Part shown: in pieces, positions 5,848 to 49,486 of the stretch
Layout of the letters: every line of letters begins with the position of its first letter
Numbering within the stretch: position 1 is the stretch's first letter
DNA from: a virus
Length of the DNA: 49,486 bases
Strand: one strand, 5' to 3'
Virus record (IMG/VR): IMGVR_UViG_3300045257_000116
Location: 1 to 49,486 of that record
Notes under the pieces: model-generated
The model's database searches: none
The model's input: the letters and a program-made list of their open reading frames with translations, nothing else
Told to the model about the DNA's origin: nothing
Position numbers and translations under genes: made by a program

Positions 5848-5871
5848 GATGCTTTCCTTTCCTTGGCTCGA

Positions 5872-26440: not shown

Positions 26441-27472
26441 TCATGCGTAGGCTACCGAAAGCTTGATCGTACTTTCCGGCCGGATATCCCAACCCGGCGT
26501 GGTGCGCATTTCGGCAACGACATCGGTGCCGCCGTGGGCGATCGGGGAAATGATCTGCCGCGGCGAAGGCATGTCGCACAGCATTTTGGTATTCGACCGC
26601 ATATTCGGCTGGAAACCGGCGAACTTGTTCGTATCGATCTGATCAACATGCGGCGTGTCGATCTCGGGAATGATGATCATGATCGCGTCGCTGTTGGACG
26701 TGCCGCCCGTGCCCTGGCCCTGCAGCGTGTCGTCATAGGTCCATTCGAGAACGTCCTGATTGGTCTTCAGGATTTCCTCGAACGTGCCTTTGGTGGACAT
26801 CGAGCCGGCACCCTCGCGCTGCATCTGCACGAGCTGGACGATATTGTACTCGAACGGCCCGAGCGAGCGCTGCGGTCCGCACACGACGACGCGACAACCC
26901 TTGCCCATCTGGTTCATGCGGGTCTTCAGCGTCTGGATCAACTGCGCCAGGTAGAAGGCCATAAAGCCGTTATCGATCGTCAGGATGGTGTTGTTGCCGT
27001 ACTGATCGGCCGGCAGAGTGACGGCGGTGATGCCCACGGCATTGACCAGACCCTCGCCATTGCCGGGACTGAAGCCATAGAGCAGGCCGTTGCGCATCTG
27101 CTGGAACGTCGCCTGTTCGTGGCCGAGTTCCAACGCCTGCGGAAGCCCGAAGCCCCATGTGCCGGCGGCGGCGCTGTCATGATGATCGTACTGGCCGTTC
27201 AACCGGATCATGTAGGTCGGGACGCTGATCATCTTGTTGGTCAGCGAAATCGACTGCATCTGATTGCCGGCGGACTGGCTCACGGTTTCCTTGGTGCGGA
27301 TGTCCATGACCTTGGCGTACACGACCAGGTCGGTGGTTCCGATCCGCACTTCCGGGTTGCCGTCATCGAGCAGCGAGAACGCGCCCGATGCCTGCGAGAT
27401 CGGCATCACGAAATCGGGGATCGTGTATGAGGGATGAACCAGTTCGTAGGCGGGAGCGATCAAACCGACCAT
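26441..27472 (-). CDS. Major capsid protein (by position, size and terminator)
   Basis: 343 aa, downstream of the scaffold-like gene and followed by a strong terminator. No fold motif verified. Confidence 0.55.
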   Translation of the reverse strand: MVGLIAPAYELVHPSYTIPDFVMPISQASGAFSLLDDGNPEVRIGTTDLVVYAKVMDIRTKETVSQSAGNQMQSISLTNKMISVPTYMIRLNGQYDHHDSAAAGTWGFGLPQALELGHEQATFQQMRNGLLYGFSPGNGEGLVNAVGITAVTLPADQYGNNTILTIDNGFMAFYLAQLIQTLKTRMNQMGKGCRVVVCGPQRSLGPFEYNIVQLVQMQREGAGSMSTKGTFEEILKTNQDVLEWTYDDTLQGQGTGGTSNSDAIMIIIPEIDTPHVDQIDTNKFAGFQPNMRSNTKMLCDMPSPRQIISPIAHGGTDVVAEMRTTPGWDIRPESTIKLSVAYA

Positions 27473-27484
27473 GCTGAAATATCC

Positions 27485-28372
27485 TTAATTGAGCAGGAAG
27501 ACGGCGACCGCGCCGGTATTCACGTAGTTCACAGCGCCGGTTGTGGCGTTGTAGGCGATGGTCTTGTTACCCGCCGCCTGCGTCTGCAGAACCATGCCGG
27601 GAACCTGACCGCCGCCGGCTACGACAATGCCGCCGCTGGAATAGGTGCCGGGCGAACCCGCTCGGGCATTCGTGGTCACGATGGTCGTGCTGTTGATGCT
27701 GACCACGGTTTGCTGACCGTTATAGCCCGTGCCGTCGCCTCCGGTGGAAACGATGCCCGAAACCTCGATCACGTCACCCGCGTTGATGAAGCTCGTGAGG
27801 TCGGTGCCAACGGTATAGGTGTTCTGCCCGCCGCTGGTGCTGGCCCATGTCGCGCCGGTAATCGTGGTCTGCGGATATGCCGCCGAGAACGGAACCAACT
27901 GCTGCGCGCCGAAGTCCCAGGATGCAGCCTGCGAAACCGGCGAGCCGTCATAGTTCACGAGGCCGGGCGAGCAGGGAAGGATGATACGCGCGCCGCAGCG
28001 GAACCGGTAATAACCGACGACACCGCCGGGACCGATCGATGGCGCGGTTGACTGCGGCGTGGTCAGCCATGCGTACATCTGGTCCGAGGTCGAGAAGCCG
28101 GTCAGCGCGCCGGTCGCGCCGGTTGTGGAAATCGTGGTCGCTCGGGTGATGGTCCCGCCGAGAGAGCCGTCCGTGGTCGAGAGCGGGATGCTTTCGCTGA
28201 TCCCGACACCGCCCCACATCGGGAGGGTTTCATTTGCGCCGAGGACGCCGGTTGCCAAGCTGAAGCGGGCGACCGGATCACCGATTGCCATGCCCGCAAC
28301 GAACCCGTCCGAGGTCGTATAGAACTGCCCTGCTGCGTTCGTGGTCGCATAGGGATTGAGCGGAGCAACCAT
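27485..28372 (-). CDS. Capsid accessory / decoration-like protein
   Basis: 295 aa, between the scaffold-like and capsid genes. It carries the shared YNG module (see findings). Confidence 0.4.
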   Translation of the reverse strand: MVAPLNPYATTNAAGQFYTTSDGFVAGMAIGDPVARFSLATGVLGANETLPMWGGVGISESIPLSTTDGSLGGTITRATTISTTGATGALTGFSTSDQMYAWLTTPQSTAPSIGPGGVVGYYRFRCGARIILPCSPGLVNYDGSPVSQAASWDFGAQQLVPFSAAYPQTTITGATWASTSGGQNTYTVGTDLTSFINAGDVIEVSGIVSTGGDGTGYNGQQTVVSINSTTIVTTNARAGSPGTYSSGGIVVAGGGQVPGMVLQTQAAGNKTIAYNATTGAVNYVNTGAVAVFLLN

Positions 28373-28375
28373 GGA

Positions 28376-30595
28376 TCAAAACCCCCGAGCGACTTGTGAA
28401 GGATGCTTCAGCACCGCAGCCTTGCTATGCGCGCGGAACTTGTTGAGAAAGCTCCCGATATGCCCGACAGGCGTGCGGATCGTGTGGCCGGCGGGCGTGC
28501 GCGTTTCGCGGTAACGAATGCCGGAAGTCTGCGCGGCCGGCGAGTTGGCGAACAGGATCGCGTCGGCATAGACGGTTTCGGCAACGGCCTTGAGGGTCTT
28601 CGCATCGAAGGCCGACAGGTCCGCATCCTTGAAGGTACGCGAATGCTCGATGATGCCCTTGAGGGTACGGCGACGATAGGCCATCGGGCTTTCACCAGCG
28701 GCGGGACGGGGCGCGGACTGACCGAGGGTCGAATAGACCGTATCGGCCTTGGTCTGCGCGTCGGCCATCTCGGCGGCGTCTTCGTCGGTCAGGTTGGCGG
28801 GAATTTTGCCTTCCATTTCGTCCAGGCGATCTTTCAGCGCCTGAGCATCGGCTTTGGCGGCGGCGTCCGCCTTTTCCTTTTCCTCTTTTTCCTCGGCGTC
28901 TTTCTTGTCCTTGGCTTCTTTCTCTTCGCGCGCCTTCTTGTCCTCTTCGGACTCGGCGGCATCGCGGCGATCTTTCAGCGATCCCTCGACCGCATCCAGG
29001 CGATCACAGATCGCGTCGAGCTTGTCGAATTTGTCGAGTGCGGCGTCGAGGCGATCAGCGCGGGCTTTCTCCGCGTCAGCTTTGGCCTTCAACTCTTCTT
29101 CGGTCATCGTCAAAGCCTCATTCTCAATGTTCGCCGAAACAATACCGACAGCCGGTCCGCCTTTATCCCAGACCCCGCGATCACATATCGCTACATGGTC
29201 TAGTAGTAGAGGCTTCCCTTCTATCAATAGCTTGGAACCATCGTCAAGGTGAATAAAATCAGTCGCGTTGGAAACAGTGACCAGCGGCGACGTGGAAAGC
29301 TGATCGGTGTGAAGCAGTTCGATGGTACTTTCGTCAAACAATTTGGCGATTGCCCAGACTTCCTCGCCCTTGATATAGGGCACAAAGACTGACCCAACAT
29401 TTTGCTCCGCGTATTCCTCGGATGTCAGCGCGCCCTTTGAATGCTCAAACAAAACGGGCAAGCCGCTGCACCGCGCGAGAAAATCGTCGGTCAGATAATG
29501 CGCCGGATCGCGCCAGCACCATTCATCGATCTTCCCGCCGCGATAGGCGGCGCGTGTGCCTGTGATGCGGATATCGAACAGCGCGACATTGCGATAAAAC
29601 TGCGGGCTGGTCAGATCGCCGGCCGCCATCAGCCGCGCGATGTCGAGTTCGTTCGCATCGAGCATTTTGAGCGCGACTGCGACGCCGGGATGCAGCGGCT
29701 CGGGTGGCTCAGATGCCAATGCCCATGCATGGCCGGTGTGTTCGCCCGAAACGACAGGCTCAAACTGCTCATCGATCGGTTGCAGATATGTCGTGAAATC
29801 GACACTGACATCGGGATCGGTCGAGCCGAGGAATGGGCCATTGCGCCGGCACAGAACCGAGCGCTCGCCATCGGGCAGAAAGCCGACTTCCTCAATCGTC
29901 TCGCGGGTCGCAGTTTCTTCGAGAGTTTCGCCGTTCTCGGCATGACCGCCAGGCAGGCACCAAAAGCCGGGGAAGTCGCCTCCATCGCCGCGCTTAAGGA
30001 AAAGCACATGCTCGGTTGGCGTCTTGAAAAGAATTCCAGCGGCGCGGGTCGGGTCCATCCTTTGACCATCTAGCACATAAGGCGCACCCGTTGGCAGCGA
30101 ATCCGCACGTTCACTGAATGTGTCGGCGCGAACTCTATCGATATCGACGCCTATTGCAGCGGCTTCTTTTATGAATTGTTCAATTTTTTCGTCTGCTAAT
30201 TCGTCTGGATCATTTGGAGAAAGCATGATCTGCTTTGTTCTCCACGGCGCAGATCCAGCAGAATGGTCGGAAACTCGAAATTCTGTCTGAATAAATCTAC
30301 GTTTCGGAGGCTCCCCCCGTTTTGTGCCCTTGGCCGCATCCCATTGTGTTTTGCGCGCGCTTAGAGATTGATCGCTTTCCGTGGCATATAGCTTGATGTA
30401 TGAACTCTCGCCCACTAATGTCTTCGAGTGATCAACCTGGATGGCAGCTGCGGGAATTTTGCTTCTGATTTTTGAAGCTAGAGACTTTGCTGTTTCAGGA
30501 ACTGACTTCGCCCCGCCGCCAGAGCCAAATTTTCCATCAGCATCACGGGGATGGTCGGATTCGCGAAACTCGTCGGTTGCGGTGAATTCAGGCAT
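28376..30595 (-). CDS. Nudix hydrolase - scaffold/prohead-protease-like fusion protein
   Basis: 739-aa single ORF. The Nudix box GGHAENGETLEETATRETIEEVGF is at aa 216-239 (nt 29879..29950). There is a globular block at aa 335-480 and a charged coiled-coil at aa 495-600 (EEELKAKADAEKARADRLD...EEKEEKEKADAAAKADAQALKDRLDEMEG). The N-terminus has a DHPRDADGKFG motif. Confidence 0.7.
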   Translation of the reverse strand: MPEFTATDEFRESDHPRDADGKFGSGGGAKSVPETAKSLASKIRSKIPAAAIQVDHSKTLVGESSYIKLYATESDQSLSARKTQWDAAKGTKRGEPPKRRFIQTEFRVSDHSAGSAPWRTKQIMLSPNDPDELADEKIEQFIKEAAAIGVDIDRVRADTFSERADSLPTGAPYVLDGQRMDPTRAAGILFKTPTEHVLFLKRGDGGDFPGFWCLPGGHAENGETLEETATRETIEEVGFLPDGERSVLCRRNGPFLGSTDPDVSVDFTTYLQPIDEQFEPVVSGEHTGHAWALASEPPEPLHPGVAVALKMLDANELDIARLMAAGDLTSPQFYRNVALFDIRITGTRAAYRGGKIDEWCWRDPAHYLTDDFLARCSGLPVLFEHSKGALTSEEYAEQNVGSVFVPYIKGEEVWAIAKLFDESTIELLHTDQLSTSPLVTVSNATDFIHLDDGSKLLIEGKPLLLDHVAICDRGVWDKGGPAVGIVSANIENEALTMTEEELKAKADAEKARADRLDAALDKFDKLDAICDRLDAVEGSLKDRRDAAESEEDKKAREEKEAKDKKDAEEKEEKEKADAAAKADAQALKDRLDEMEGKIPANLTDEDAAEMADAQTKADTVYSTLGQSAPRPAAGESPMAYRRRTLKGIIEHSRTFKDADLSAFDAKTLKAVAETVYADAILFANSPAAQTSGIRYRETRTPAGHTIRTPVGHIGSFLNKFRAHSKAAVLKHPSQVARGF

Positions 30596-30636
30596 CTGCC
30601 TGCTATATCACATCGCGCAGAACGGGGAAGGGCGGA

Positions 30637-30669
30637 AAGTGAAAAGGCCCGGCATACAACGCCGGGCCT
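30637..30669 (-). terminator. Intrinsic terminator after the dipeptide-repeat gene
   Basis: Minus-strand RNA GGCCCGGC-GUUGUAU-GCCGGGCC followed by UUUUCACUUU. Confidence 0.6.
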
Positions 30670-30695
30670 TTGTGTGGATGGGATGCGACCGATTA

Positions 30696-30980
30696 TTAGC
30701 CGTAGCCGGAGCCGTAGCCGTAGCCGGAGCCGGAGCCGTAGCCGGAGCCGGAGCCGTCGCCGTAGCCGGAGCCGTCGCCGTAGCCGTAGCCGTCGCCGTA
30801 GCCGGAGCCGGAGCCGTAGCCGGAGCCGGAGCCGTAGCCGTAGCCGGAGCCGTCGCCGTAGCCGGAGCCGGAGCCGGAGCCGTAGCCGTAGCCGGAGCCG
30901 TCGCCGTAGCCGGAGCCGTCGCCGTAGCCGGAGCCGTCGCCGTCCAGATCGCTCCGCTCACCTAAGAGCATCTTCGCCAT
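30696..30980 (-). CDS. (Tyr/Ser/Asp)-Gly dipeptide-repeat protein
   Basis: 94 aa: MAKMLLGERSDL followed by 41 X-Gly dipeptides (X = 16 Tyr, 17 Ser, 8 Asp). The ATG is 1 nt after the upstream stop (TAATATG), and the gene ends in a double stop TAATAA followed by a terminator. Confidence 0.6.
   Translation of the reverse strand: MAKMLLGERSDLDGDGSGYGDGSGYGDGSGYGYGSGSGSGYGDGSGYGYGSGSGYGSGSGYGDGYGYGDGSGYGDGSGSGYGSGSGYGYGSGYG
30699..30944. repeat. 246-nt hexanucleotide-periodic tandem repeat
   Basis: The plus strand is built only from gccgta, gccgga and gccgtc units. All six frames are open, which is why several ORF-track entries overlap here. Confidence 0.95.
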
Positions 30981-30981
30981 A

Positions 30982-31359
30982 TTACCGCCCCTGCACTTTC
31001 GCCGCGATCCATGCCGTTTCGGCCGTGGGATCGACGGAGAATATCGCGGTCACGCCTTCGAGTGTGAGTGTCGAGAGCGTGGCGGAAATCTTGCAATCCT
31101 TGGTCGGGCCTTTTTCGCCCAGACCGAAGACGCCGCCGACATCAGCGGACCAGTAAAGACACATGCGCGCCTCGGTCAGACTGATGGGCCGAGCCGCGAT
31201 ATCGGTCGTATAGCCGAAAACGACGCCACGCTTGTCGGTGCAGACGACGACGGGGATTTTACCATGCGTCGTTTGAGCGACTTCCGGCGTCGAAGCGGTC
31301 GGGCAGAAAAGCGCGGCCAACTTCTTGGCCTCGCCGATGGTGAGAGAATCGATATCCAT
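30982..31359 (-). CDS. Hypothetical protein (head module)
   Basis: 125-aa ORF. GGAGGAAG lies upstream of the ATG at 31359. Confidence 0.6.
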   Translation of the reverse strand: MDIDSLTIGEAKKLAALFCPTASTPEVAQTTHGKIPVVVCTDKRGVVFGYTTDIAARPISLTEARMCLYWSADVGGVFGLGEKGPTKDCKISATLSTLTLEGVTAIFSVDPTAETAWIAAKVQGR

Positions 31360-31466: not shown

Positions 31467-32309
31467 TCATGTAGCCACCATCGCCGCCCGTGCCGCAATA
31501 AGAGATTGCCGCCCTTTTTCGGTCAGCATGTCGTTCGGCAACCGGCGAAGATTGTAAACCCATTCGTACGAGCAGCCGCAGTAGACCAGTTCGCCCGGCC
31601 GCTCGACATCATCGGTAAAGCCGTCCGGTCCCGGCTTTACGAGCCCTTTTGCGTGCGCCCAGCTATGGCGGACCAGAAGGATATGTCCATCGCGCGCCTC
31701 ATGCGGCTTGCGCGGATAGCGCTTGTAGTGGTGCCGCCATATCCCCGCGATGGCGTTCTGATCCATGGCGATGATGTGCGACAGATCGGCCGCGAACTTC
31801 TGTCCCTGGTCAATCGCGACGCGCCTCTCTTCGAACGGCAACGACACCAGCGCCTTGCGGATATCGCTCTTGACCGGGCTCTTCGCGATCACATCGGAAC
31901 CGCCAGGCGGAACAGACGTTGCCCAGCCGGCGAACCGCTGCAGCGTCTTTTCGATAGCGCTCGTACGGTTCAGTTTGATCAATCCCGCGCTCGCCATGAT
32001 ACGCCGGTCGAGTTCGGCGCGCAGTCTCGGGCGCAACTGGTCAATCGCGAATCGCGGAATGCCTTCGTGGTATTTGAGGATCGCGCCCTTGTCGATCATC
32101 CGGGCATAGATGCGACCGAACGTCGATTTGAGCGCGTCTTCGAGAACGTGCGGCGGGGTGAGCGAGCGCATTGCAGCCTCGCGGATCACGCGCATCCATT
32201 CTGCGATTTGGTCGGGGCTGGTGTAGCCACGCTGGCTAATATCCGCGACGGCTTCGGTGACGGTTTGGGCAAACGTCTTCACTCGGCGGCGATCTCTTCT
32301 GGATGCCAT
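31467..32309 (-). CDS. Head morphogenesis protein (MuF / SPP1 gp7-like)
   Basis: 280 aa, immediately after the portal gene, with a C-terminal YCGCSYEW (CxC) block as in F-like proteins. An alternative GTG start at 32282 gives a GTGA overlap with the portal stop. Confidence 0.5.
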   Translation of the reverse strand: MASRRDRRRVKTFAQTVTEAVADISQRGYTSPDQIAEWMRVIREAAMRSLTPPHVLEDALKSTFGRIYARMIDKGAILKYHEGIPRFAIDQLRPRLRAELDRRIMASAGLIKLNRTSAIEKTLQRFAGWATSVPPGGSDVIAKSPVKSDIRKALVSLPFEERRVAIDQGQKFAADLSHIIAMDQNAIAGIWRHHYKRYPRKPHEARDGHILLVRHSWAHAKGLVKPGPDGFTDDVERPGELVYCGCSYEWVYNLRRLPNDMLTEKGRQSLIAARAAMVAT

Positions 32310-33787
32310 TTGGCGGCCAATCGGCGGCCAGCACTGTCGGCGCGGAACGGCTTAGGCGGTGAGGGCTCTTTCGCGCCTTCATCGTCACCCGCGCCCATCT
32401 GCGCCATGCGGTCATTTTGTTCGGTCAGGAATTCTTCGAGCGCATCGGCGTCAATCTCGAACTGCGTCGGGAACAGAAGCTTGAGCGCGTTGAAATTGTC
32501 CAACGCGGCTTGAATGAGCATGGTTTTCGAGGTCGGATCGACGGCAGGAATCAGCACCTCGAGCAATGCGATAATCGCCTCAAGGCGGACTTTTTCGGCG
32601 TCGGCTTCCTCGGCGACAGATGGTTTGAGCAAGTTGGGCCACTCGGCGACGAACGAATTCTGCCAGCTCGTGAAGGCTTGCTCATAGGACATCTTGCCAT
32701 AGACATCGGGATATAGGTTCTTCATCCGATCGAAGAATTCTTTATCCCAGGCGCGATATTGCGCGATCCGGTCCATGTAGGCGTAGGTCGGGTTCATGTC
32801 CTTGCGGATGCCGTCGATCCACCGGGCGATATCCTTGGCGTCTTCCGTACCCTCGCCAAACCCCTCCGCGAACGTCTCGGAATTCAGCACCTTGGCGGGC
32901 ATCGGTGCGCCGGTCGCGATGTTGTCGAGGATGTTCTTCCGCGCCGTGGTCATGGCGTTATCGGTGTTTTGCATGTTCAGCGTCTCGACGCGATCCTTTT
33001 CGCCGATCGTCAGGACGTTGCCGGTTTTGCCGATCCGCAGCATCGCGCGCTTGACCGCCGACGCCGCGCCCATGATGCCGCTGATGATCGAGCCGGCCTG
33101 TTGCATCGCGACCACGAGCAACCCGGCCTTCGTCGTCACCATGTCATCGGTGTACATCGACTGAACGAACGATTTCAGCGGGAACAGGATGCTTTGGTAG
33201 GCAGATCGGCCCACGTAGCCATATGCCGACGATGTGTAGGCGAGATAGATCGGCTTGCCGTTGAAGACGACACAGCATCGGCTGGCGTGATAGACCGTCC
33301 CGCTCGCGGTCAGACTGCCGAGCTTTTTCAGGAAGTCGGGCGAATTCGGGTTGAGGTCGAGAACAAGTGACCCCGCGACATTGAGCGGGTCGAACACGTT
33401 GAAATAGATATCGCCTTCAGCAAGCTTGCTGATGTCGAGCGGCTTGGCGGTCTTCTTCGGGTCCTGGCCGCAGATAATGGCGGATGCGCCGTAGACGCGG
33501 GCCAGCGTGTGGGCGTTACGGATGATCTCGTCTGCGCCGATCTGGTGCCACGCGGCAAGGAATGCGTCTTTGCAGTGATCGCCGGGTGAGTTCGCGACGC
33601 TGATTTCGCGCGCCTGAGACTGCGCCATCTGGATCGGCCAGCCTGCGATCTTGTCGCCCAGAACGTGGAAAATCCAGATTTCTTTGCATGTCTGATAGCT
33701 GGCGTCGCTGCCCGGCTCGATGCTGTCGCACATGAGCAGGTTTTGCAGCGGCGTTCCAAGGTTCGAGCCGAAAGAGATTTCAGCCAT
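32279..33787 (-). CDS. Portal protein
   Basis: 502 aa, directly downstream of the large terminase (2-nt gap). The C-terminus is acidic. Confidence 0.65.
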   Translation of the reverse strand: MAEISFGSNLGTPLQNLLMCDSIEPGSDASYQTCKEIWIFHVLGDKIAGWPIQMAQSQAREISVANSPGDHCKDAFLAAWHQIGADEIIRNAHTLARVYGASAIICGQDPKKTAKPLDISKLAEGDIYFNVFDPLNVAGSLVLDLNPNSPDFLKKLGSLTASGTVYHASRCCVVFNGKPIYLAYTSSAYGYVGRSAYQSILFPLKSFVQSMYTDDMVTTKAGLLVVAMQQAGSIISGIMGAASAVKRAMLRIGKTGNVLTIGEKDRVETLNMQNTDNAMTTARKNILDNIATGAPMPAKVLNSETFAEGFGEGTEDAKDIARWIDGIRKDMNPTYAYMDRIAQYRAWDKEFFDRMKNLYPDVYGKMSYEQAFTSWQNSFVAEWPNLLKPSVAEEADAEKVRLEAIIALLEVLIPAVDPTSKTMLIQAALDNFNALKLLFPTQFEIDADALEEFLTEQNDRMAQMGAGDDEGAKEPSPPKPFRADSAGRRLAAKWHPEEIAAE

Positions 33788-33789
33788 CG

Positions 33790-35091
33790 TCAGTAACCCT
33801 CGCTGTTGCCGAGCGCGATGCTGAGCCCGTAGGTCATCGTATCGAGCAAATCGTCAGGCAATCCATCTTTCGCGCCGATCCTGAATTCGAATACCTGCGA
33901 CAGCCAATGATTGCGCGATTTGTCTTTGTAGGAAACCGTCTTCTCATAGGCATGGCGCGAGATTTTGCACAAGCCCTGATAGGCATAGCCCGAGACGGAT
34001 AGCGCGCGACCATCCTTGCCGGCAGCGACCAGATCGTTATCGATGGCAAAGCACGGCCAGTTCCGCCGCCGCGCCTGCTGGATCAGGATGGAGCCGGATT
34101 GCTTGTCCTCCACGAATGCGCCGATCGATCCATTCCGCGCCTGACACTGCTTCGCGTAGGCTTCTAGGTTCGTATAGACGCTCGGTAGCCAGCTCTCCAG
34201 AAGCGAACCCTCGATCTGGATGATGTCCCAATCGAGCAAAACCAACTTATGCCCAAAATGCTGATTGATCGCGTAGTAGCTGACTGCGGTCCCGTCATGC
34301 TCCTGGCCGTCCTTGACCGCCGTGTCGATCACTGCAAAGACGGCATCGCACTTCACGGGGTATTCGACCGGAGCGTCACTCACCAGAAATTTATCGATCT
34401 CGAACAGCGCCACGCCCGAGAAATCGACGAACGAGCCCTCATATTCCTGCTGATAGACCTTCGGGTGCAGATCCCGCTTTGCCGCCTCGATCTCGGCGGC
34501 CGGCAGGATATCCGCCGAGTGCCAAGTGAATGCGCCGAATTCCGCCAGCGATCCGCGCAGGGCAGTTTCGGCCAGTGCCTTTTCGTTCATCTCGTAATAA
34601 TGATTTCGGCCTTCGGGCACGCCGATCAGGTCGCACCAGCCGTTGCGGTCGGCAAGCGCCGGGCGAACGTTTTCGCCCCATGCGCCCTCTTTCATATTTC
34701 CGTATTCGTCGAGAATGCCGCCATCCCACGGCGATCCTTCGATACGTGCCGGCTTGTCCATGCCGAGAACAGTGATTTCGCTATCGTTGATCAGCTTCAA
34801 GGTGAGGTCGGATTCCGAGATATTCGCGATCAGATCGGCAGGCACCAGCTTTTTGAAGTCGCTCCAATAGATACGCTTGGCTTGGTCGCGGGTTGGTGCG
34901 CCGGCAAAGAAGCGTGCATTGTCGTAGTCGGTGCCATAGATCGCGCGCTTGACGATTTTGCGCTTAGCGAGTTCTGTCTTGCCCGAGCGTCGGCCGGCAC
35001 TGACGACATTAAACCGATGCGGGCTGTTCCAGTACAGATGCTGCATCGGGTGCGGCTTCAGCACCGTCCATCGGCGTGTCAGAAGTTCCAT
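33790..35091 (-). CDS. terL: Terminase large subunit
   Basis: 433 aa with Walker A VSAGRRSGKTE near the N-terminus and an acidic Walker B-like GILDEYG. It follows the small terminase. Confidence 0.8.
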   Translation of the reverse strand: MELLTRRWTVLKPHPMQHLYWNSPHRFNVVSAGRRSGKTELAKRKIVKRAIYGTDYDNARFFAGAPTRDQAKRIYWSDFKKLVPADLIANISESDLTLKLINDSEITVLGMDKPARIEGSPWDGGILDEYGNMKEGAWGENVRPALADRNGWCDLIGVPEGRNHYYEMNEKALAETALRGSLAEFGAFTWHSADILPAAEIEAAKRDLHPKVYQQEYEGSFVDFSGVALFEIDKFLVSDAPVEYPVKCDAVFAVIDTAVKDGQEHDGTAVSYYAINQHFGHKLVLLDWDIIQIEGSLLESWLPSVYTNLEAYAKQCQARNGSIGAFVEDKQSGSILIQQARRRNWPCFAIDNDLVAAGKDGRALSVSGYAYQGLCKISRHAYEKTVSYKDKSRNHWLSQVFEFRIGAKDGLPDDLLDTMTYGLSIALGNSEGY

Positions 35092-35551
35092 CAGTCACCT
35101 TGTCGATTTCTTGGACAAGGGCGCGCAGGCGTTGGGCGGTTGTCAAGAGCGTTTTGTCGGCGGGGTTTTTGTCGGCCTCTTCATGCGGGTTCGCCCCATA
35201 CCCAGGATCGATCTTACTCGCCCGCCAGCGGTAATGATGCGCCAGCGCCTCAGCTCGTGCGAGTTCGAACTTGCGTTCGGCTATGCCCATGTTTTTTGCG
35301 GTGCCAGCCTGTTTGAGTTCGAGTTCGGCGCGCTCGTCCCATGTTCGGGCGGCGAACCTACGGGCGGCGTCCGATTGTGCCGCCCGGTCTTTGTCCGCGG
35401 CAATCCATCGTGTGACCTGGGAACGATTGATATTCAGATCACAGGCGATCTGGCTCATGGTCACGCCGTCAATGATCAGATCGCAGAACGCCTCGATACC
35501 GAGTGCGTTGAGCTTGTCTCGCGCTTCTCCGGTGTCTGGCGGATGTCCCAT
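35009..35551 (-). CDS. terS: Terminase small subunit (HTH-containing)
   Basis: 180 aa. The HTH-like segment is VTMSQIACDLNINRSQVTRWI. It lies upstream of and overlaps terL. Confidence 0.6.
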   Translation of the reverse strand: MGHPPDTGEARDKLNALGIEAFCDLIIDGVTMSQIACDLNINRSQVTRWIAADKDRAAQSDAARRFAARTWDERAELELKQAGTAKNMGIAERKFELARAEALAHHYRWRASKIDPGYGANPHEEADKNPADKTLLTTAQRLRALVQEIDKVTDGTSDTPMDGAEAAPDAASVLEQPASV

Positions 35552-37676: not shown

Positions 37677-40025
37677 TCACAGAAGTTCGTTCTCGGGAAA
37701 GCGCTGATCGCGAAAACTGGATTGATCGGAAATCACTGAAATCAGGCGAAATTTCCGCGCTGAATTGCTTCTGATTGGAATGTATCCCTCTTTTGAAAGC
37801 ACCTGGGAAAACGATTTCGATGTCCCTGGATACTCGCCGTTGCGGTCGCACCACTTTGCCCATGAGCCGAATAGCCTTCCCACGGTGTCCTCGTAGTGCT
37901 GTCCCGTCTCGCAGCACTCGGCAACCCATTGATGAAATGTGTTCTGATCCTCGAAATATTCCTGGGTTGATTCCGTAACGATTGGGGGTGGCGCTAGACC
38001 GATCCTTTGCCAGAGCAGGCAACCCTCGATCATCCAGTTGAGGATACCGGGCCATTCTGCTTGCAGCTTTTCGTCAAGGTCTTTGTCGATCACGCTTGGT
38101 TTGTTCGTGAACGGGATCATGTGAAACCGGCGGCGAACGGCTTCATCGACCGTCTTAAGAGCTGGCTTGTTATTGCCGGCGATGAGGATTTTGAATGTCG
38201 GCAGAAACGTGAAGGGATCGCCCCGCATGACGCGGGCTGTGATCGGATCGCCACCGGTCAGCGACTTGATCTTGGCTGTTGCCCAATGCTTGCCTTCCTC
38301 GACCTCCTGCGCCGTGACCATGCGTGCGCCGTGGAGGAATGCTATCTCGGTCGCGTGCTGTTCGTGCTTGGACGCCGTGAATGTCGTCATGCTCGAAACC
38401 TTGGCATAGTCCTGCATGATCGCAGTTAAAGTATTCAGAAATGTACCCTTGCCGTTTCCGCCGTCGCCATGGAAGAAAAAGAGCGCGTGTTCCTTGACGC
38501 TGCCCGTCAGGCAATAACCCGAAACACGCTGCAAGTAATCGATCAATGCCCCATCCTGGCGCGTGGCATCTTCAAGAAACTGGTTCCAAACCGGACACTC
38601 GCCCGAAACGCCGGCCGCTGTGATCTTGGTGATCCTATCGCCAGGACGAGAATCGCGGAGTTCTCCGGTCTTAAGCTCGACTGTCCCATCTGGCGTTGCG
38701 AGCAACCACGGGTCGCCGTCCCAATCTGATGACACGGTTGCAATCCTCGGGTCAGCTCGTGCGAACCTTTCGGCACCTCCCGCGGTCGATGCCTTGGCCG
38801 TCCCGCGTTCTGCCTTAATGTTCGATGATCTGGCAATCTCGCGCGCATAGTGAAATGCGAGGCTCTTGCGCTCGGGACGCCATCTGTTGCCGTCCCATTC
38901 CAGCCAGGTGTTCTGATCGTGGCAATACCGCAGGATGTTCGAGAACTTGTCCGCGAACGCGAGCGCGATAGCATCCTCGTTCGCTGCGATCTGAACCGCG
39001 TCTGTCGCGATGAAGTTTGACCAGCTCGCGGCGCGTTCCTCGATCCATTGTGCGATGAAATCAGGCGTCCATCGCGCTTCCTCGACATCGGCGGCATCCC
39101 AGCCAGGTTGCGATGGATCTGCATTGACCTGGACAAGCCGGATCGAGCGCGCGATCCCCGTGATCTTATTCGCGATATCGATCATGCAACTCGTGCCGAT
39201 CTGCTCGGCCACCGGCATGATCTCGCCAGCCTTCGAGTGATCGGGCGGATATGCCAGCGCGTCGGCATCGGGCCACAGTACGACATCGCGGCCACCGAGC
39301 GGCGCAAAGTCCGTGAATTTTGCCGCCTTGCTTCCCCCTGCCCATGTCATGGCAACGTAGCCCGGCAGGAGGCGCTGCGCTGCGTCTGTCGCCTTCTCCC
39401 CTTCGCAGAGTACCACCGGCTTTCCAGCGCCATCAGCGAGCCTGTCCAGGCCGTATAACGGGCGCGGCGCGGAATAGTGGCCCATTCCCCATGACCACGT
39501 TCTGCCGCCATCAGTGCTGCCGACAGTCCATTGTGGCGTGATCTTCTTTTTCTTCGCGCCATCGATCACGTCATAGCGAGCGACATAGAAGATGAGTTCG
39601 CCGGCCGACGATCGATATGCCCAATATGACGATGGCTCGCCCCACGCATAGACATCCATATTCGGGAGGCCATCCGCCTTCTCGGCTGGACGGGTGAGGC
39701 GTTGCGCCTTTTTGAGCAGCGCCTTCTTTGGAAATGCCGCGATGGTTTCTGTCTTGTCCGTCATAATGGCGACGGCATCGCGGAAATCTACGGAATGGTA
39801 TTTCTGGATGAAGTCGATCGCGTCACCGCCGACGCCGCAACCATGACAATGGAACCGCTCTTTATCCTCGCCGGCGTAGACCGTGAAGCTCGGGGTGCGC
39901 TCGGCGTGGAAGGGACACAGACCTTTATATTCTCGTCCGTCTTTCTTCAGGGCAACGTAGCGGGATATCAGTTCCGGCAGGCTGACCGATGCCAGGAGTT
40001 CCGATAGATCGGTGCGCGCGCTCAT
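37677..40025 (-). CDS. Bifunctional DNA primase / P4-D5-type helicase
   Basis: 782 aa. It has the CHC2 zinc finger CPFHAERTPSF...HCHGCG at the N-terminus and the Walker A GDGGNGKGT in the C-terminal half (P4-family primase C-terminal / SF3 helicase pattern). Confidence 0.85.
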   Translation of the reverse strand: MSARTDLSELLASVSLPELISRYVALKKDGREYKGLCPFHAERTPSFTVYAGEDKERFHCHGCGVGGDAIDFIQKYHSVDFRDAVAIMTDKTETIAAFPKKALLKKAQRLTRPAEKADGLPNMDVYAWGEPSSYWAYRSSAGELIFYVARYDVIDGAKKKKITPQWTVGSTDGGRTWSWGMGHYSAPRPLYGLDRLADGAGKPVVLCEGEKATDAAQRLLPGYVAMTWAGGSKAAKFTDFAPLGGRDVVLWPDADALAYPPDHSKAGEIMPVAEQIGTSCMIDIANKITGIARSIRLVQVNADPSQPGWDAADVEEARWTPDFIAQWIEERAASWSNFIATDAVQIAANEDAIALAFADKFSNILRYCHDQNTWLEWDGNRWRPERKSLAFHYAREIARSSNIKAERGTAKASTAGGAERFARADPRIATVSSDWDGDPWLLATPDGTVELKTGELRDSRPGDRITKITAAGVSGECPVWNQFLEDATRQDGALIDYLQRVSGYCLTGSVKEHALFFFHGDGGNGKGTFLNTLTAIMQDYAKVSSMTTFTASKHEQHATEIAFLHGARMVTAQEVEEGKHWATAKIKSLTGGDPITARVMRGDPFTFLPTFKILIAGNNKPALKTVDEAVRRRFHMIPFTNKPSVIDKDLDEKLQAEWPGILNWMIEGCLLWQRIGLAPPPIVTESTQEYFEDQNTFHQWVAECCETGQHYEDTVGRLFGSWAKWCDRNGEYPGTSKSFSQVLSKEGYIPIRSNSARKFRLISVISDQSSFRDQRFPENELL

Positions 40026-42762: not shown

Positions 42763-43773
42763 TCATTCCGCCGCCTCTATGGCTAAGGTTTCATCGAGCG
42801 GGCGGTTTTCTCCGAAATCCATAGCCGCTTGCTCGACCTCGCGACGGCCTTCATAGGCCACTTGGATATTCTTCACCGCCTGCCGGTAATAGGACGGCTT
42901 CAATTCAATGCCGACGCCCTTCCGGCCGCCCGTGAGTGCGCCATATACCTCGCTGCCGACGCCCATGAACGGGGTGAGAAGCGTCTCGCCTGGGTTGCTC
43001 CAAAGCGTGACAACGCGATCAATCACGTCAAGCTGTAAAGCATGGACGTGTTTTTCGTCTTCTTCGTCCTTGGCCTCGCGGAAGGGCAGGACGCGACCGA
43101 TCCTAACGTCATCCCAGAAAGCCGACGCATAGTTGCGCCAAATCCAGTGAGAGTATCGGTTCTCGATCTGGTTTCCGGTCCAGCCGCGATATTTTAGCAA
43201 TTCGGTCGGCATCTTGCGTTCGCCGGCATATTCCATGAGGCCGGTCGGATGCGTGATGGGGATCTGATTCTGTCCGCTACGGCGAAACACCAGAAGATAG
43301 TCGGCCGACGCCACGCTGCAGCGAGAGCTGTCCTCGACCAACGAACGGTGCGCGAGGTTTTTTGCCATCGTGCGATTTCGGACGGCAAGGGGTTCCTTCC
43401 ATATCGCGTATCGCGCGATGAAATTCCATCCGGACTTCTCATGCAGTCGGATGATGTCGCCGGGAAAATCGATCAGATGGTCCGTTCCTGAATTCCCGCT
43501 CGGCACGTCCATGCAATGAACCGCGGTCATCCGGCCTGGCAGGGTCAGCCGATGGAGTTCGCGAACCACATAACCATAATGCTCAAAGAACTGGTCATAG
43601 TCGCGGCAGTTCGATAGATCGCGTTCGCTGGACGAGTAGCAGAACAGGCCCCCGAACGGAGGGGAATACAGAGAAAGATGGATACTTTCATCGCGGAAAG
43701 CCTTCATCGTTTCGATGCAGTCGCCGTTATAGATGGCATACCGGTCTGTTACCTTTTGATCTATTGCAACCAT
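42763..43773 (-). CDS. DNA N6-adenine / N4-cytosine methyltransferase (beta class)
   Basis: 336 aa. Motif IV, LYSPPFGG, is near the N-terminus and motif I, TPFMGVGSE, near the C-terminus (the order of beta-class amino-methyltransferases). No cognate restriction gene was found. Confidence 0.8.
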   Translation of the reverse strand: MVAIDQKVTDRYAIYNGDCIETMKAFRDESIHLSLYSPPFGGLFCYSSSERDLSNCRDYDQFFEHYGYVVRELHRLTLPGRMTAVHCMDVPSGNSGTDHLIDFPGDIIRLHEKSGWNFIARYAIWKEPLAVRNRTMAKNLAHRSLVEDSSRCSVASADYLLVFRRSGQNQIPITHPTGLMEYAGERKMPTELLKYRGWTGNQIENRYSHWIWRNYASAFWDDVRIGRVLPFREAKDEEDEKHVHALQLDVIDRVVTLWSNPGETLLTPFMGVGSEVYGALTGGRKGVGIELKPSYYRQAVKNIQVAYEGRREVEQAAMDFGENRPLDETLAIEAAE

Positions 43774-45161
43774 GATGGGATTTCCTCCTGCTTGGTGAAA
43801 TTGACGCTGCGACTAACGCCTACGGCTTGGTTCATATGCGCGACCAAGCCAGCGAACATTTTGTCAGCCGCGACGGATTTGCGCTGAAGATTGGAAAGAA
43901 TGTCTTTCTCGCCTTCCGTGGTCACAATGTCGGACACGACTTCTTGCGTTTGTCCGAACCGCCAGCAACGCCGGATGCTCTGGTAGTAGCTTTCAAACGA
44001 ATGAGTGGGGAACGAGACGGAGTGCGCGCAATGCTGAAAATTGAGACCCCATGCGCCAATCTTGTCCTTCGTGATCAGCACGCGCGCCTTGCCGTCGATA
44101 AAGGCCAGGAATTTTTCTTCCTTCGCCTCTTCGCTATCCTTGCCGCTCACCTGAATGGCGTCGGGGATTGAGCGTTCGAGAATATCGCCTTCGTCATTGA
44201 GATGGCACCAGACAATTGCGGGATTGCCCGTGCCGTTGACCAGCCCGGCCGCGCGCTCGCATCGCTCATCGATCGTGCGTCGCCGTTCCTCTCGCTGTTC
44301 TGCCAAGCCGTGCGCCGGCAGTGCGAACAACATGCCCTCTGGCTTCTTGTGCGTCTCGACTTGGTGCTGACGCTCGATCAGCTGAGGCAGGATGAACGCC
44401 CCATCGACAAAGCCAAGGTCGGACGGCTTGCGGACAGCACGCGCCCATGAGCAAACCCATTGCCAGAACGGTGCCTCGGCATGACCCTTGAACCGCCACT
44501 TGGCGTTGTCGTCGAGCTTTGTATAATTCTTGCCGCGATCACGGCGCACCATCGGCTTGATCGAATTTCCCTGATCGTTTTTGAAGAAGCGCGACAGCAT
44601 GTCCATGTAGCCGAGATAGCCCAGCGCCTCGCTTGACGTGCCGAGTTCAATATATTCATTCGGTGATGGCGTAGCAGTGCAAAGCAGGCGATACCGCATC
44701 TTCCGCATGAAGTCGGTTATCTCTTGCCGCCGAACGCCATCGAACGATTTCAGGATCGCGCTTTCGTCACAGACAGCGCCAGCAAAATCGTTAGGATTGA
44801 AATAGTGCAACCGTTCGTAGTTGGCGACATTGATTCCTGGCCGGACAACGCCATCGCGCGACAGACATGCCTCGATACCGAATTTCTCAGCCTCGCGAAC
44901 CGTCTGCGTTGTGACCGCATTCGGAGCCAGGATGATAACCGGCTTGTTCGTATGCCGCACAACCTGATCGGCCCATGCGAGTTGCATCGGCGTCTTGCCC
45001 ATGCCGCAATCCGCGAAGATCGCCCCGCGCCCTTTCCTGACAGACCAATCGACCAGCGATTGCTGAAAGTCGAATAGGAATGACGGCATTGTTTTCGGCG
45101 CAAATCCGTCATCTGTGCCGGTGTGCGTTTTGCCTAACAGGAATTCTGCGTAATCGCTCAT
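43761..45161 (-). CDS. SNF2/DEAD-like superfamily 2 helicase
   Basis: 466 aa with Walker A ADCGMGKTPMQL, motif II VCDESAILK, and C-terminal helicase motifs (LITKDKIGAWGLNFQ, QSIRRCWRFGQ). Confidence 0.8.
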   Translation of the reverse strand: MSDYAEFLLGKTHTGTDDGFAPKTMPSFLFDFQQSLVDWSVRKGRGAIFADCGMGKTPMQLAWADQVVRHTNKPVIILAPNAVTTQTVREAEKFGIEACLSRDGVVRPGINVANYERLHYFNPNDFAGAVCDESAILKSFDGVRRQEITDFMRKMRYRLLCTATPSPNEYIELGTSSEALGYLGYMDMLSRFFKNDQGNSIKPMVRRDRGKNYTKLDDNAKWRFKGHAEAPFWQWVCSWARAVRKPSDLGFVDGAFILPQLIERQHQVETHKKPEGMLFALPAHGLAEQREERRRTIDERCERAAGLVNGTGNPAIVWCHLNDEGDILERSIPDAIQVSGKDSEEAKEEKFLAFIDGKARVLITKDKIGAWGLNFQHCAHSVSFPTHSFESYYQSIRRCWRFGQTQEVVSDIVTTEGEKDILSNLQRKSVAADKMFAGLVAHMNQAVGVSRSVNFTKQEEIPSWLQ

Positions 45162-48903: not shown

Positions 48904-49466
48904 CGGGCGATGATATGGAGGAATGGCGGGTAATTTCTGACTTTCCCTCTTATTCAGTGAGCAGCCTTGGTCAAGTTAAAAGGATCAAGACGGATGCTCG
49001 TGGTCACAGGGTAACCGGAATTCCGCTGAAGCCATCGCCATCAACAAGCGGATATCTCTTTGTTTCTCTTTGCGACGGGAAGGGTCGAAAATCTGTACGC
49101 ATAAATCGGTTGGTGTGTCGCGCCTTCCACGGCGAGCCGCCGACATCGAAGCATCACGCCGCTCACAACAACGGACATAACCACGATAATAATAAAGACA
49201 ATTTGAGATGGGCCACTGGCGTCGAAAATGAAGCTGACAAACGCATTCATGGGACCGCGCGCATCGGTGATCGCCACTGGTCTAAGTCGATGCCGGAACG
49301 TAGGTCCAAAGGCGAGCGCCACGGACGGGCAAAGCTTACTGATGCAGACATTCCAAAGATACGCGCCGACACAAGATTTCAGCGTGCCATCGCAAAAAGC
49401 TATGGCGTTTCGCAAAGGGCAATTTGGATGATTAAAACTGGGAAAACATGGAGGCATGTGCGGTGA
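48900..49466 (+). CDS. Free-standing HNH homing-type endonuclease (NUMOD4 + HNH_3-like)
   Basis: 188 aa. WRVISDFPSYSVSSLGQVKR is NUMOD4-like and AAHNNGHNHDNNKDNLRWATGVEN is HNH_3-like. There is a C-terminal HTH-like tail. The 3' end lies in the terminal repeat. Confidence 0.75.
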   Translation: MTGDDMEEWRVISDFPSYSVSSLGQVKRIKTDARGHRVTGIPLKPSPSTSGYLFVSLCDGKGRKSVRINRLVCRAFHGEPPTSKHHAAHNNGHNHDNNKDNLRWATGVENEADKRIHGTARIGDRHWSKSMPERRSKGERHGRAKLTDADIPKIRADTRFQRAIAKSYGVSQRAIWMIKTGKTWRHVR

Positions 49467-49486
49467 CAATTAAATACCACAACGAT
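49360..49486. repeat. Terminal direct repeat, copy 2 of 2 (127 bp)
   Basis: Identical to 1..127. Confidence 0.95.

Follow-up and report, generated by a model that had tools for sequence, protein, structure and literature searches.

A Nudix domain fused to a capsid protease-scaffold polyprotein in a phage, with a predicted nested scaffold start and a compositionally foreign N-terminal cassette

Iyer et al. (2022) described a T4-NudE-like Nudix domain on a phage head protease and predicted that it is packaged and injected; the paper gives this architecture one sentence and a figure, and the parts searched make no mention of a nested scaffold start, of the HPR motif or of the domain X reported below (PMC9503650). 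Polyvalent proteins (PMC5512222) and effectors fused to MuF or portal proteins (PMC5576092) are encoded among head genes and carry multiple effector domains per polypeptide, and in MuF polymorphic toxins the MuF domain is N-terminal (Jamet 2017, PMC5576092). In herpesvirus UL26/UL26.5, lambda C/Nu3 and BcepNY3 gp13/gp13', a protease of the assemblin fold lies N-terminal to a scaffold within one ORF. A nested in-frame start yields a scaffold with the same C terminus in UL26/UL26.5 and lambda C/Nu3, and the BcepNY3 genes are annotated as a nested pair. T4 Alt, an ADP-ribosyltransferase packaged in the head, is a separate protein with a short N-terminal capsid-targeting sequence that is cleaved by gp21. 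T4 NudE is, to our knowledge, a free protein, and we know of no report of its presence in the virion.

The gene studied here lies in a window of 49,486 nucleotides, the whole stretch of DNA analysed (IMG/VR record IMGVR_UViG_3300045257_000116), which represents a complete phage genome of 49 kb. A megablast search of cultured phages with 20 kb of the window gave no match; this phage has no close cultured relative. The gene occupies the minus strand, which the first-pass annotation had left unstated, and reads from an ATG as the uninterrupted 739-codon frame claimed there, with no in-frame stop. Pfam and PHROG matches also agreed with the position claimed for it, after the portal and MuF-like genes and before the capsid gene. 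In the direction of transcription, the genes are arranged as follows:

35009-35551: TerS, first in this order
33790-35091: TerL, after TerS
32279-33787, minus strand: portal protein, Phage_portal_3 (Pfam and PHROG matches)
31467-32309, minus strand: MuF-like head morphogenesis protein (Pfam and PHROG matches)
30982-31359: DUF6948 gene, between the MuF-like gene and the ORF that follows
30608-30961: ORF directly before the gene studied
28376-30595, minus strand: whole gene for the 739-aa polyprotein, with the stop codon at 28376-28378 (ORF list and translation)
27485-28372, minus strand: phrog_6268 protein, directly after the gene studied (PHROG match)
26441-27472, minus strand: capsid-like protein, phrog_6671 (PHROG match; in synteny with the gene annotated as major capsid protein in PdC23, and with L056)

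From the N to the C terminus, the product consists of the HPR motif, domain X, a Nudix domain, a DUF2213 protease, a coiled coil and a C-terminal domain. The parts, some of them modelled with AlphaFold2 (AF2), map to the window as follows:

30512-30568, minus strand: HPR motif, aa 10-28, FRESDHPRDADGKFGSGGG, fitting [FW]xExxHPRxxxG[KR]FGSGGG
30146-30505, minus strand: domain X, about 120 aa in length (aa 31-150), an orphan of the alpha/beta type
30059-30145, minus strand: linker, aa 151-179, of low confidence, ending just before Met180
29681-30058, minus strand: Nudix hydrolase domain, aa 180-305 (Pfam NUDIX), ending in an invariant PEPLHPG
29879-29947, minus strand: Nudix box, aa 217-239, GHAENGETLEETATRETIEEVGF, fitting GX5EX7REUXEEXGU
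29135-29680, minus strand: DUF2213 domain, aa 306-487, protease of the assemblin/T4 gp21 fold (AF2, Foldseek, Pfam, phrog_530)
28796-29134, minus strand: charged Ala/Glu/Lys/Asp coiled coil, aa 488-600, scaffold stalk (composition; AF2 helices at about aa 488-597)
28379-28795, minus strand: C-terminal domain, aa 601-739, helical with a small beta part (AF2 pLDDT of about 95 over aa ~606-690)
29116-29119, minus strand: GAGG resembling a Shine-Dalgarno sequence, 8 nt before the codon for Met497
28376-29107, minus strand: predicted nested scaffolding protein of 243 aa from Met497 (in-frame ATG at 29105-29107)

The architecture of Iyer et al. (PMC9503650) is alike in class, in its late-gene context and in the prediction, made independently, of packaging and injection, and our protein has an N-terminal cassette in addition. 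With two effector-type domains (domain X, which has a relative fused to ART-PolyVal, and Nudix) in one head-module polypeptide, it resembles the polyvalent proteins. Its anchor is a protease-scaffold, whereas that of the systems in PMC5512222 and PMC5576092 is a MuF or portal protein; unlike the MuF toxins, the polypeptide contains no MuF domain, and the MuF-like protein is encoded by its own gene at 31467-32309 (Pfam and PHROG). It resembles the herpesvirus, lambda and BcepNY3 proteins in placing an assemblin-fold protease before a scaffold, and its own nested start is predicted from sequence; in those proteins, by contrast, the protease is not preceded by further enzyme domains. The portals of Bcep781, Bcep43, Bcep1 and BcepNY3 carry at their C termini a Nudix domain that falls in the same clade as ours and is about 36% identical to it, likewise on an internal head protein. 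There the Nudix anchor is the portal, and the protease, gp13/gp13', has its own gene and carries no Nudix domain. The idea shared with T4 Alt and NudE is one of ready-made enzymes that enter along with the DNA.

The fusion itself is not peculiar to this phage. It corresponds to PHROG 6216, which matched aa 184-725 (E = 6e-138). The best 120 database homologues all have it, as do cultured phages and numerous prophages of proteobacteria, so that the frame is one gene rather than two, as first proposed. Cultured phages with the fusion infect Pantoea (PdC23), Klebsiella (Chronis, RothC and RothD), Yersinia (vB_YenM) and Shewanella (vB_Sb_QDWS). Their proteins have the Nudix, DUF2213, coiled-coil and C-terminal domains at 40-44% identity over aa 185-722, and the genes share the order TerL, portal, MuF-like, fusion, 290-aa protein and capsid; in cultured phages and prophages alike, the fusion always lies between the portal/MuF and capsid genes. 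At 530-560 aa, these cultured members start at the equivalent of Met180 and are without the HPR tag and domain X. Their labels are inconsistent, ranging from NUDIX hydrolase (PdC23 gp04) to glycosyl transferase, TolA and hypothetical protein. A scan of bacterial genomes with single-protein patterns gave no match, the patterns being too specific, and an alignment-based scan succeeded. Nudix domains also occur elsewhere in head modules, as portal fusions (the Bcep781 group) and adjoining or inside MuF genes. The first-pass annotation had stated that no characterized scaffold-Nudix fusion was known. In the searchable literature we indeed found no experimental studies of Nudix-protease fusions, of their predicted delivery or of DUF2213 function, no virion proteomics of the cultured relatives and no report of Nudix peptides in virions, of cleavage sites or of ejection. 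The implied novelty was overstated: this is a PHROG family annotated in cultured phages, the design is common in phages and a delivery role has already been predicted in print (PMC9503650). What is peculiar to this phage is the compositionally foreign N-terminal cassette, that is, the HPR motif and domain X.

Pfam NUDIX (PF00293) matched aa 183-299 at 54.5 bits (E = 1.5e-14), where the cut-off is 21.1, and the match is therefore far beyond chance; the box lies within the aa 183-305 first claimed for it. Among the best 120 database homologues, at 40-70% identity, 116 have a strict Nudix box. Conservation reaches 100% at R231, E232, E235 and E236 and 99% or more at G217 and E223, and the distal E285 and W291 are invariant too. 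Invariance of REx2EE at this divergence points to selection on catalysis, and the conservation check proposed at the outset thus came out in favour of the domain, with a degenerate box only in distant prophages. The alignment with T4 NudE covers 96 aa, of which 32% are identical (pairwise E = 8e-8). The top PDB match of the family profile was RenU (6uuf, E = 4.8e-13), in an alignment that spans the whole domain, including a shared PLHPG. These matches show a weak kinship with the T4 NudE/RenU ADP-X pyrophosphatases, at the level of the clade, and the domain reached none of the NCBIfam equivalog cut-offs. RenU acts on ADPR, FAD and NADH (PMC4401782), and T4 NudE is annotated as acting on FAD, ApnA, ADPR and NADH. 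From similarity at the 30% level, the substrates are likely to be of the ADP-X class (ADPR, FAD, NADH and ApnA).

The C-terminal two-thirds had been proposed to be a protease and scaffold, with a globular block followed by a coiled coil, and several lines of evidence now bear this out. In an AF2 model with a mean pLDDT of 84, aa 306-487 form a beta-rich domain, mostly with pLDDT above 90, ahead of the helices of the coiled coil. Foldseek retrieved the EBV protease at the top (E = 3.9e-4), together with the KSHV, PRV, HCMV and VZV proteases and T4 gp21 (5jbl), at probabilities of 0.99-1.0, and phrog_530 ('head maturation protease') matched as well. Pfam DUF2213 (PF09979) scored 21.5 bits (E = 2.5e-4), just below its gathering threshold of 22, and the close homologues P0032 (23.4) and P0030 (29.3) exceed that threshold; the score is borderline and is no evidence against homology. 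The homologue alignment identified H385, S434-T-S436-P, D466-H467 and GVWDK474-478 as invariant. H385, S434/S436 and H467 are candidate catalytic residues, as they occur in the linear order of the His-Ser-His of assemblins. Aligning the family profile with T4 gp21 by hhalign gave no signal, so catalytic residues are not mappable by sequence.

Within this gene, a second start was predicted. More than 90% of homologues conserve the equivalent of Met497 (M192 in the alignment), and the internal ATG occurs in 46 of 49 family genes. A Shine-Dalgarno-like element precedes it in 40 of these 46, compared with a background of 14%. The amino acids encoded by the codons that carry the element vary between family genes, which indicates selection at the nucleotide level. 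This conserved nested start suggests that a 243-aa scaffold is translated from Met497. The C-terminal domain shared by both predicted products has invariant E635, R643 and S652, and may bind the capsid protein.

At the other end of the protein, DHPRDADGKFG (aa 14-24) is the sole HPR motif in the whole window and is predicted to be disordered (pLDDT of about 34). The first-pass annotation had linked the motif to phage head proteins that carry cargo, and our survey, with a consensus built from 268 instances in 108 proteins, confirms it as a hallmark of such proteins. It occurs once per domain in effector proteins fused to portal, MuF and protease anchors, at the junctions between internal head anchors (three unrelated portal families, MuF and the DUF2213 protease) and variable enzymes, and also at the N terminus of small stand-alone proteins encoded in head modules. 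The cargo comprises ART, TopoIB, zeta toxin, RelA/SpoT, PBECR, InPase, LPD1/13 and 2H domains, a repertoire that matches that of the polyvalent and MuF effectors (PMC5512222, PMC5576092). A tblastn search of cultured phages with the 28-aa consensus gave no match at an E-value of 10, the query being too short or masked, and we used a degenerate DNA pattern scan in its place. We found no description of the motif in the literature, and it is absent from PMC5512222 and PMC5576092. It is conceivable, if doubtful, that across many unrelated tailed phages the 19-residue HPR motif serves as a portable tag on all effector modules delivered from the head, and that it perhaps also has a part in their targeting, processing or release.

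Domain X is modelled with a pLDDT of about 80-86, and aa 154-183 fall below 50. A word-indexed homology search with aa 1-178 matched only the HPR motif, and an exhaustive HMMER search was required to find relatives of the domain, namely P0122 (E = 7e-19), P0156, P0159, which is fused to ART-PolyVal, and P0235. Invariant residues are G62, S64, Y66, E73, R81, W85, R93, G94, P97, R107, S109, D110, H111 and G114. The domain has no significant match in Pfam, PHROG or the PDB (best Foldseek E-value against the PDB, 0.16) and a single borderline, unnamed match in BFVD (E = 5e-3). A stand-alone HPR protein (L015) was dropped as a relative because its E-value of 0.32 was not significant. GC3 is 39% in domain X and 62-82% around it, a composition that is foreign to the genome and fits a recent acquisition.

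Met180 corresponds to the start codon of short homologues; P0002, for example, begins MDPTRAAGILF, as does the query from aa 180 onward. N-terminal fusions of an HPR cassette occur independently in P0013, P0030, P0032, P0034, P0100, P0104 and L010, and in P0013, P0032, P0100 and P0104 the slot holds ADPrib_exo_Tox, an ART of the Alt/VIP2 family. We considered an ADP-ribosyltransferase for the N-terminal extension of our protein too and rejected it, as it has only the HPR motif in common with P0032 and matches no ART profile. That idea had arisen from P0032 aligning over 98% of the query.

We think it slightly more probable than even that the gene product is a polyprotein for head assembly, made in two predicted forms, and that its Nudix domain is packaged, ejected and active early in the next host. 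Translation from Met497 would give an abundant 243-aa scaffold, and the first ATG a minor full-length form. Because both would end in the same scaffold module, the full-length form would co-assemble inside the procapsid, in parallel with UL26/UL26.5 and C/Nu3. The protease would then cut scaffold and capsid proteins and the scaffold would exit, leaving the N-terminal enzyme part (domain X and the Nudix-protease unit) in the head as an internal protein to be ejected together with the DNA. Early in infection, the Nudix domain might cleave molecules of the ADP-ribose or NADH/FAD/ApnA type, probably blunting NAD+/ADPr-based host defences or complementing ADP-ribosyltransferase cargo. The HPR-tagged cassette would be an exchangeable cargo slot, holding domain X here and an Alt/VIP2-type ART in relatives. 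Retention in the mature head and entry into the cell are proposed by analogy and from the recurrent fusion of Nudix to internal head proteins. Against delivery, we reason that a T=7-size head with a 49-kb genome would leave little room for many large internal protein copies.

A less likely explanation, to which we nevertheless assign some weight, is that the Nudix domain has its role in the producer cell or procapsid rather than in the next host. Within the protease precursor, it could remove ADP-X metabolites or defence signals late in infection, or control protease activation, before being broken down or driven out along with the scaffold. Exit from the head is the normal fate of scaffolds, and the AF2 model is compatible with this idea: the Nudix-protease junction has no flexible linker, and its invariant PEPLHPG abuts confidently modelled protease helices, so that the Nudix domain may never come free as an enzyme and could instead work on behalf of the protease. 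The Nudix-protease pairing is also ancient and co-conserved, which would make the separate, variable HPR cassette the true cargo slot. Several observations favour delivery instead. The protease part of herpesvirus UL26 (VP24) is retained in capsids, a precedent for keeping such a unit in the head. Nudix domains occur in one polypeptide with ARTs of the Alt/VIP2 type, and the T4 prototype of these ARTs is packaged in the head and then injected. Nudix domains are also found on portal C termini and MuF-type proteins, which remain in the head (PMC9503650).

It is rather improbable that the Nudix domain serves the protease chiefly as a structural element or propeptide, with hydrolase activity irrelevant and the effector reading wrong. 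The domain is missing or its box degenerate in Rac-SA53, in about a quarter of prophage loci and in Saccharibacter (L039 and L049), where the domain is kept and the box lost, and REx2EK replaces REx2EE in two enterobacterial loci. Assembly thus does not depend on Nudix, which is not catalytic in every lineage, and the several members without it presumably still form heads. A purely structural role is at odds with the complete conservation of R231, E232, E235 and E236, the near-complete conservation of G217 and E223 and the invariance of E285 and W291 in the 120 homologues. That two or three genes (cargo, Nudix and protease/scaffold) were merged by a sequencing error is very improbable: Met180 is a start codon in short homologues and the first 179 codons differ in composition from the remainder, but the frame holds no stop codon, no usable Shine-Dalgarno-like element precedes Met180, the Nudix-protease fusion recurs in more than 100 independent sequences and HPR cassettes were fused independently in the seven proteins named above.

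Annotation of the fusion genes, now NUDIX hydrolase, TolA, glycosyl transferase or hypothetical, needs correcting. As the enzyme is hard-wired to the protease-scaffold, cultured relatives are available for direct tests. Should the tag reading of HPR hold, injected phage effectors could be listed from sequence alone, the motif could index head-packaged cargo across phage metagenomes, and domain X, which has an invariant RxSDH signature, would count as a new effector. If the preferred reading of the polyprotein, delivery of its Nudix domain, is true, many temperate and virulent proteobacterial phages would bring a ready-made ADP-X pyrophosphatase into the cell at DNA entry, and relatives would deliver an ADP-ribosyltransferase too. 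The enzyme would then arrive before phage gene expression, when NAD+/ADPr-based defences would need countering.

The 739-codon ORF that the first-pass annotation had reported at 28376-30595 is real: it lies on the minus strand, starts with ATG and runs unbroken for 739 aa. Its proposed location was borne out by Pfam and PHROG assignments, which place it after the portal and MuF-like genes and ahead of the capsid gene. In the direction of transcription, the head module consists of the following genes:

35009-35551, small terminase
33790-35091, large terminase
32279-33787, portal (Phage_portal_3)
31467-32309, MuF-like head morphogenesis protein (phrog_324)
30982-31359, DUF6948 protein
30608-30961 (-), 117-codon ORF with a GTG start
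28376-30595 (-), the 739-aa ORF studied here
27485-28372, phrog_6268 protein
26441-27472, capsid-like protein (phrog_6671)

The 117-codon ORF (G+C 71%, GC3 62%) ends 12 nt short of the target ATG and had no Pfam or PHROG match; its coding status is doubtful. No clear Shine-Dalgarno sequence precedes the target ATG. We are highly confident of the architecture of the target protein, which comprises an HPR motif (a 19-residue element, aa 10-28), an orphan domain that we call domain X (aa 31-150), a Nudix domain, a DUF2213 protease, a coiled coil and a C-terminal domain.

Searching the protein database with the target returned 900 matches at E <= 1e-5. The best 120 of these (422-847 bits) are all annotated as Nudix; most are 560-650 aa long and align from around aa 180 to the end. 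The Nudix-protease fusion also constitutes PHROG 6216 (E 6e-138) and is found in cultured phages, among them Pantoea PdC23, Klebsiella Chronis, RothC and RothD, five Yersinia vB_YenM phages and Shewanella vB_Sb_QDWS; the protease-scaffold occurs without Nudix in Rac-SA53 and an Actinobacillus phage. Among bacterial genomes, scanned at one per species, 51 prophage loci came to light, spread over Acetobacteraceae, Paraburkholderia, Caballeronia, Rhizobiales, Enterobacterales and other groups; in ~30 of them the ORF also encodes an intact Nudix domain, and about a quarter lack one. Two Saccharibacter prophages (L039 and L049) keep a Nudix-like domain that has lost its catalytic box, and two enterobacterial loci (L024 and L027) have one with REx2EK; these are presumably inactive or altered enzymes kept as structural parts. 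That the ORF might be two genes merged by a sequencing error is excluded by a fusion that is common and conserved in the database, cultured phages and prophages.

The Nudix domain of the target scores 54.5 bits in Pfam (E 1.5e-14) against a cut-off of 21.1, and the box read from the sequence in the first pass, GHAENGETLEETATRETIEEVGF, lies at aa 217-239. Across 120 homologues, R231, E232, E235 and E236 never vary, G217 and E223 are kept in at least 99%, and 116 have the strict box; the lack of conservation that the first pass had named as grounds for refutation was thus not seen. The best PDB match of the family profile is mycobacterial RenU (6uuf; E 4.8e-13), in an alignment that spans the entire domain including a common C-terminal PLHPG motif. 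RenU acts on ADP-ribose, FAD and NADH and does not hydrolyse NAD+ (PMC4401782). For T4 NudE, to which the target domain is 32% identical over 96 aa, the annotated substrates are FAD, diadenosine polyphosphates, ADP-ribose and NADH. No NCBIfam equivalog threshold was reached by the target domain. From these similarities an ADP-X pyrophosphatase is our best guess at its class, and no more than a guess; that the domain is a catalytically competent enzyme of this kind we consider likely. An invariant PEPLHPG, with no flexible linker, leads directly into confidently modelled protease helices, and the Nudix and protease domains may thus stay joined as one unit.

The globular block and charged helical region described in the first pass are both present. 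We modelled the target region with AlphaFold2 from 117 homologues (mean pLDDT 84). The protease region (aa 306-487; pLDDT mostly >90) matched the proteases of Epstein-Barr, Kaposi's sarcoma, pseudorabies, cytomegalovirus and varicella-zoster viruses and the T4 prohead protease gp21 in the PDB, with probabilities of 0.99-1.0 and a best E of 3.9e-4. Concordant with the fold matches were a weak Pfam match to DUF2213 and phrog_530, "head maturation protease"; hhalign of the family against T4 gp21 gave no signal. Residues invariant over 117-120 homologues include H385, S434-T-S436-P, D466-H467 and GVWDK, and H385, S434/S436 and H467 run in the linear His...Ser...His order of the assemblin triad, whose spatial equivalents they may be. 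Long helices forming a coiled coil follow (aa 488-597), and then a conserved, confidently modelled C-terminal domain (aa 601-739).

Met497, which is kept in >90% of homologues, lies where the coiled coil begins; its ATG (29105-29107 (-)) has GAGG upstream at a spacing of 8 nt, the two together spanning 29105-29119. Our survey of this start took in 49 family genes, drawn from cultured phages, from prophages and from the window. An in-frame ATG lies 10-45 codons past the GVWD motif in 46 of them, and in 40 of these 46 GGAG, GAGG or AGGA occurs at -18 to -4, compared with 14% at other codon positions. The codons bearing this element specify different amino acids in different family genes, so it is the nucleotide sequence that is under selection. 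Given the conserved ATG and Shine-Dalgarno-like element, the gene most likely has two predicted products, the full-length protein and a 243-aa scaffolding protein with a common C terminus. The same nested arrangement is found in lambda C/Nu3 and herpesvirus UL26/UL26.5, and BcepNY3 gp13/gp13' is annotated in this same way.

Most homologues start at the equivalent of Met180 (MDPTRAAGILF in the related protein P0002). The target and a minority of relatives are extended, always beginning with [FW]xE[SA]DHPRxxDGKFGSGGG and continuing into a variable domain. This slot holds an Alt/VIP2-type ADP-ribosyltransferase in P0013, P0032, P0100 and P0104 (PF03496, E 3.6e-19 in P0032, the gene surroundings of which are syntenic with those of the target), and other domains of unassigned kind in P0030, P0034 and L010. 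P0104 has a second short N-terminal motif, (E/A)xQHRxMEAAAHG(H)STLGIPxxVGKEF, ahead of its HPR tag; this motif replaces the Nudix domain in the family members L040 (2272-3903) and L045 (2571-4244). In the AlphaFold2 model of aa 1-183 of the target, aa 1-28, with the HPR motif, are disordered, aa 30-150 fold as an alpha/beta domain (pLDDT about 80-86), and a disordered linker follows. The slot is occupied by domain X (30146-30505 (-)), for which Pfam, PHROG and the PDB gave nothing significant and BFVD a single borderline, unnamed match (E 5e-3). Four relatives were detected, P0122 (E 7e-19), P0156, P0235 and P0159, the last joined to an ART-PolyVal domain, and an R-x-S-D-H signature is invariant. 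At 39%, the GC3 of domain X is below that of the remainder of the gene (62-76%) and of neighbouring head genes (72-82%); the domain therefore looks recently acquired. In P0119 (aa ~70-290), an HPR-tagged cassette sits inside the Nudix domain itself, in a loop of family-variable length, separating the Nudix-box half from the C-terminal half.

DHPRDADGKFG, which the first pass had linked to cargo-carrying head proteins, lies at aa 14-24 of the target (full motif, 30512-30568 (-)). With aa 1-183 as the query, an exhaustive HMMER search retrieved 114 representative proteins; most of them, 500-2400 aa in length, match aa ~5-40 only, and do so 2-6 times each. The consensus from 268 instances is [FW]xExxHPRxxxG[KR]FGSGGG; successive copies are spaced at 85-658 aa (median 253), equivalent to one per domain, and the first falls within the initial 60 residues in 43 of 108 proteins. 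A census of Pfam domains in 41 of the proteins found Phage_portal_3 in 7, ADP-ribosyltransferases in ~13, topoisomerase IB and Nudix in 5 each and DUF2213 in 2, in addition to GNAT, InPase, histidine phosphatase, zeta toxin, RelA/SpoT and CCA-adding enzyme domains. As an independent sample, we scanned IMG/VR with a degenerate DNA pattern, which gave at least 86 motif-bearing ORFs, and took a census of 79 of the 86 listed. Among the matches listed, anchors were Phage_portal_3 (at least 21), lambda-type portal (at least 7), DUF2213 (at least 5), Mu portal and MuF (at least 1 each); cargo comprised topoisomerase IB (at least 8), Nudix (at least 6), ART and zeta toxin (at least 4 each), PBECR1 (at least 3), InPase, LPD1, LPD13, 2H and GNAT. 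Many of the ORFs listed are 650-900 aa with HPR at ~aa 500-530, and many are small proteins with HPR at aa 6-45; in L058 the motif comes just past a portal domain at aa 100-450.

Across the two censuses the motif lies between portal, MuF or protease anchors and effector domains, and also at the N terminus of small stand-alone proteins. The link made in the first pass is therefore correct: HPR is a hallmark of the cargo modules that internal head proteins carry. Stand-alone HPR-tagged genes lie directly upstream of the Nudix-protease gene in two prophages. One, between the portal and Nudix-protease genes of a Limnocylindrus-assigned contig (L035, 6320-7321), is a genuine topoisomerase IB (Pfam E 6e-20); a neighbouring 557-aa ORF (4357-6030) has a weak intein-splicing match. 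The place of topoisomerase IB among the commonest HPR-tagged cargo suggests that phages package it. Because the motif occurs at extreme N termini and on stand-alone proteins, it is more than a spacer, and its presence alongside three portal families that are unrelated to one another speaks against a single, specific protease family as its reader. It may instead act as a capsid-targeting or ejection signal, as a self-processing site or as a conserved recombination junction for cassette swapping; cassette mobility fits the P0119 insertion and the foreign composition of domain X. The motif is not mentioned in the polyvalent-protein paper (PMC5512222) or the MuF-toxin paper (PMC5576092), and other papers may describe it.

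The window carries an identical 127-bp repeat at 1-127 and 49360-49486 and is therefore a complete genome of ~49.36 kb, circularly assembled or terminally redundant. It has a G+C content of 57.6%, no tRNA genes and no close relative among cultured phages. A 5-hmdU DNA kinase helical domain is encoded at 3041-3901 (+) (PF18723, E 1.3e-41), so the phage DNA may contain hypermodified thymidine; adjoining ORFs (4196-5008 and others) had no Pfam match. An IS1595-family transposase (DDE_Tnp_IS1595, E 4e-31) with its zinc ribbon is encoded at 5872-6801 (-), so the phage carries an insertion sequence. The replication and recombination module (37677-40025 (-), 42763-45161 (-) and 89-784 (+)) includes a DnaG-zinc-ribbon/D5_N primase-helicase, an SNF2-like helicase, an N6/N4 DNA methylase and a YqaJ exonuclease. 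Among 30 window ORFs scanned against Pfam, none was an ART, macro or NADAR gene.

The full-length protein, as the minor form, would enter the procapsid by co-assembly with the nested scaffold product. The first-pass annotation had proposed that the Nudix domain is packaged and injected with the DNA, an idea already published as a computational prediction (Iyer et al. 2022, PMC9503650); the target is a further example of this widespread, known and predicted kind of fusion. Our literature search found no experimental work on such fusions, on DUF2213 or on the virion content of cultured relatives. The odds that the domain remains in the head and reaches the next host seem to us about even, the main rival being a Nudix-protease unit that works only in the producer cell or procapsid. 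Three features appear to go beyond the published description: the nested start of the scaffold, conserved in the family; the exchangeable N-terminal slot, with its HPR tag, on the protease-scaffold; and domain X. Packaged delivery is a theme familiar to specialists; this system is well suited to its first direct test, and the HPR tag is a lead worth pursuing.
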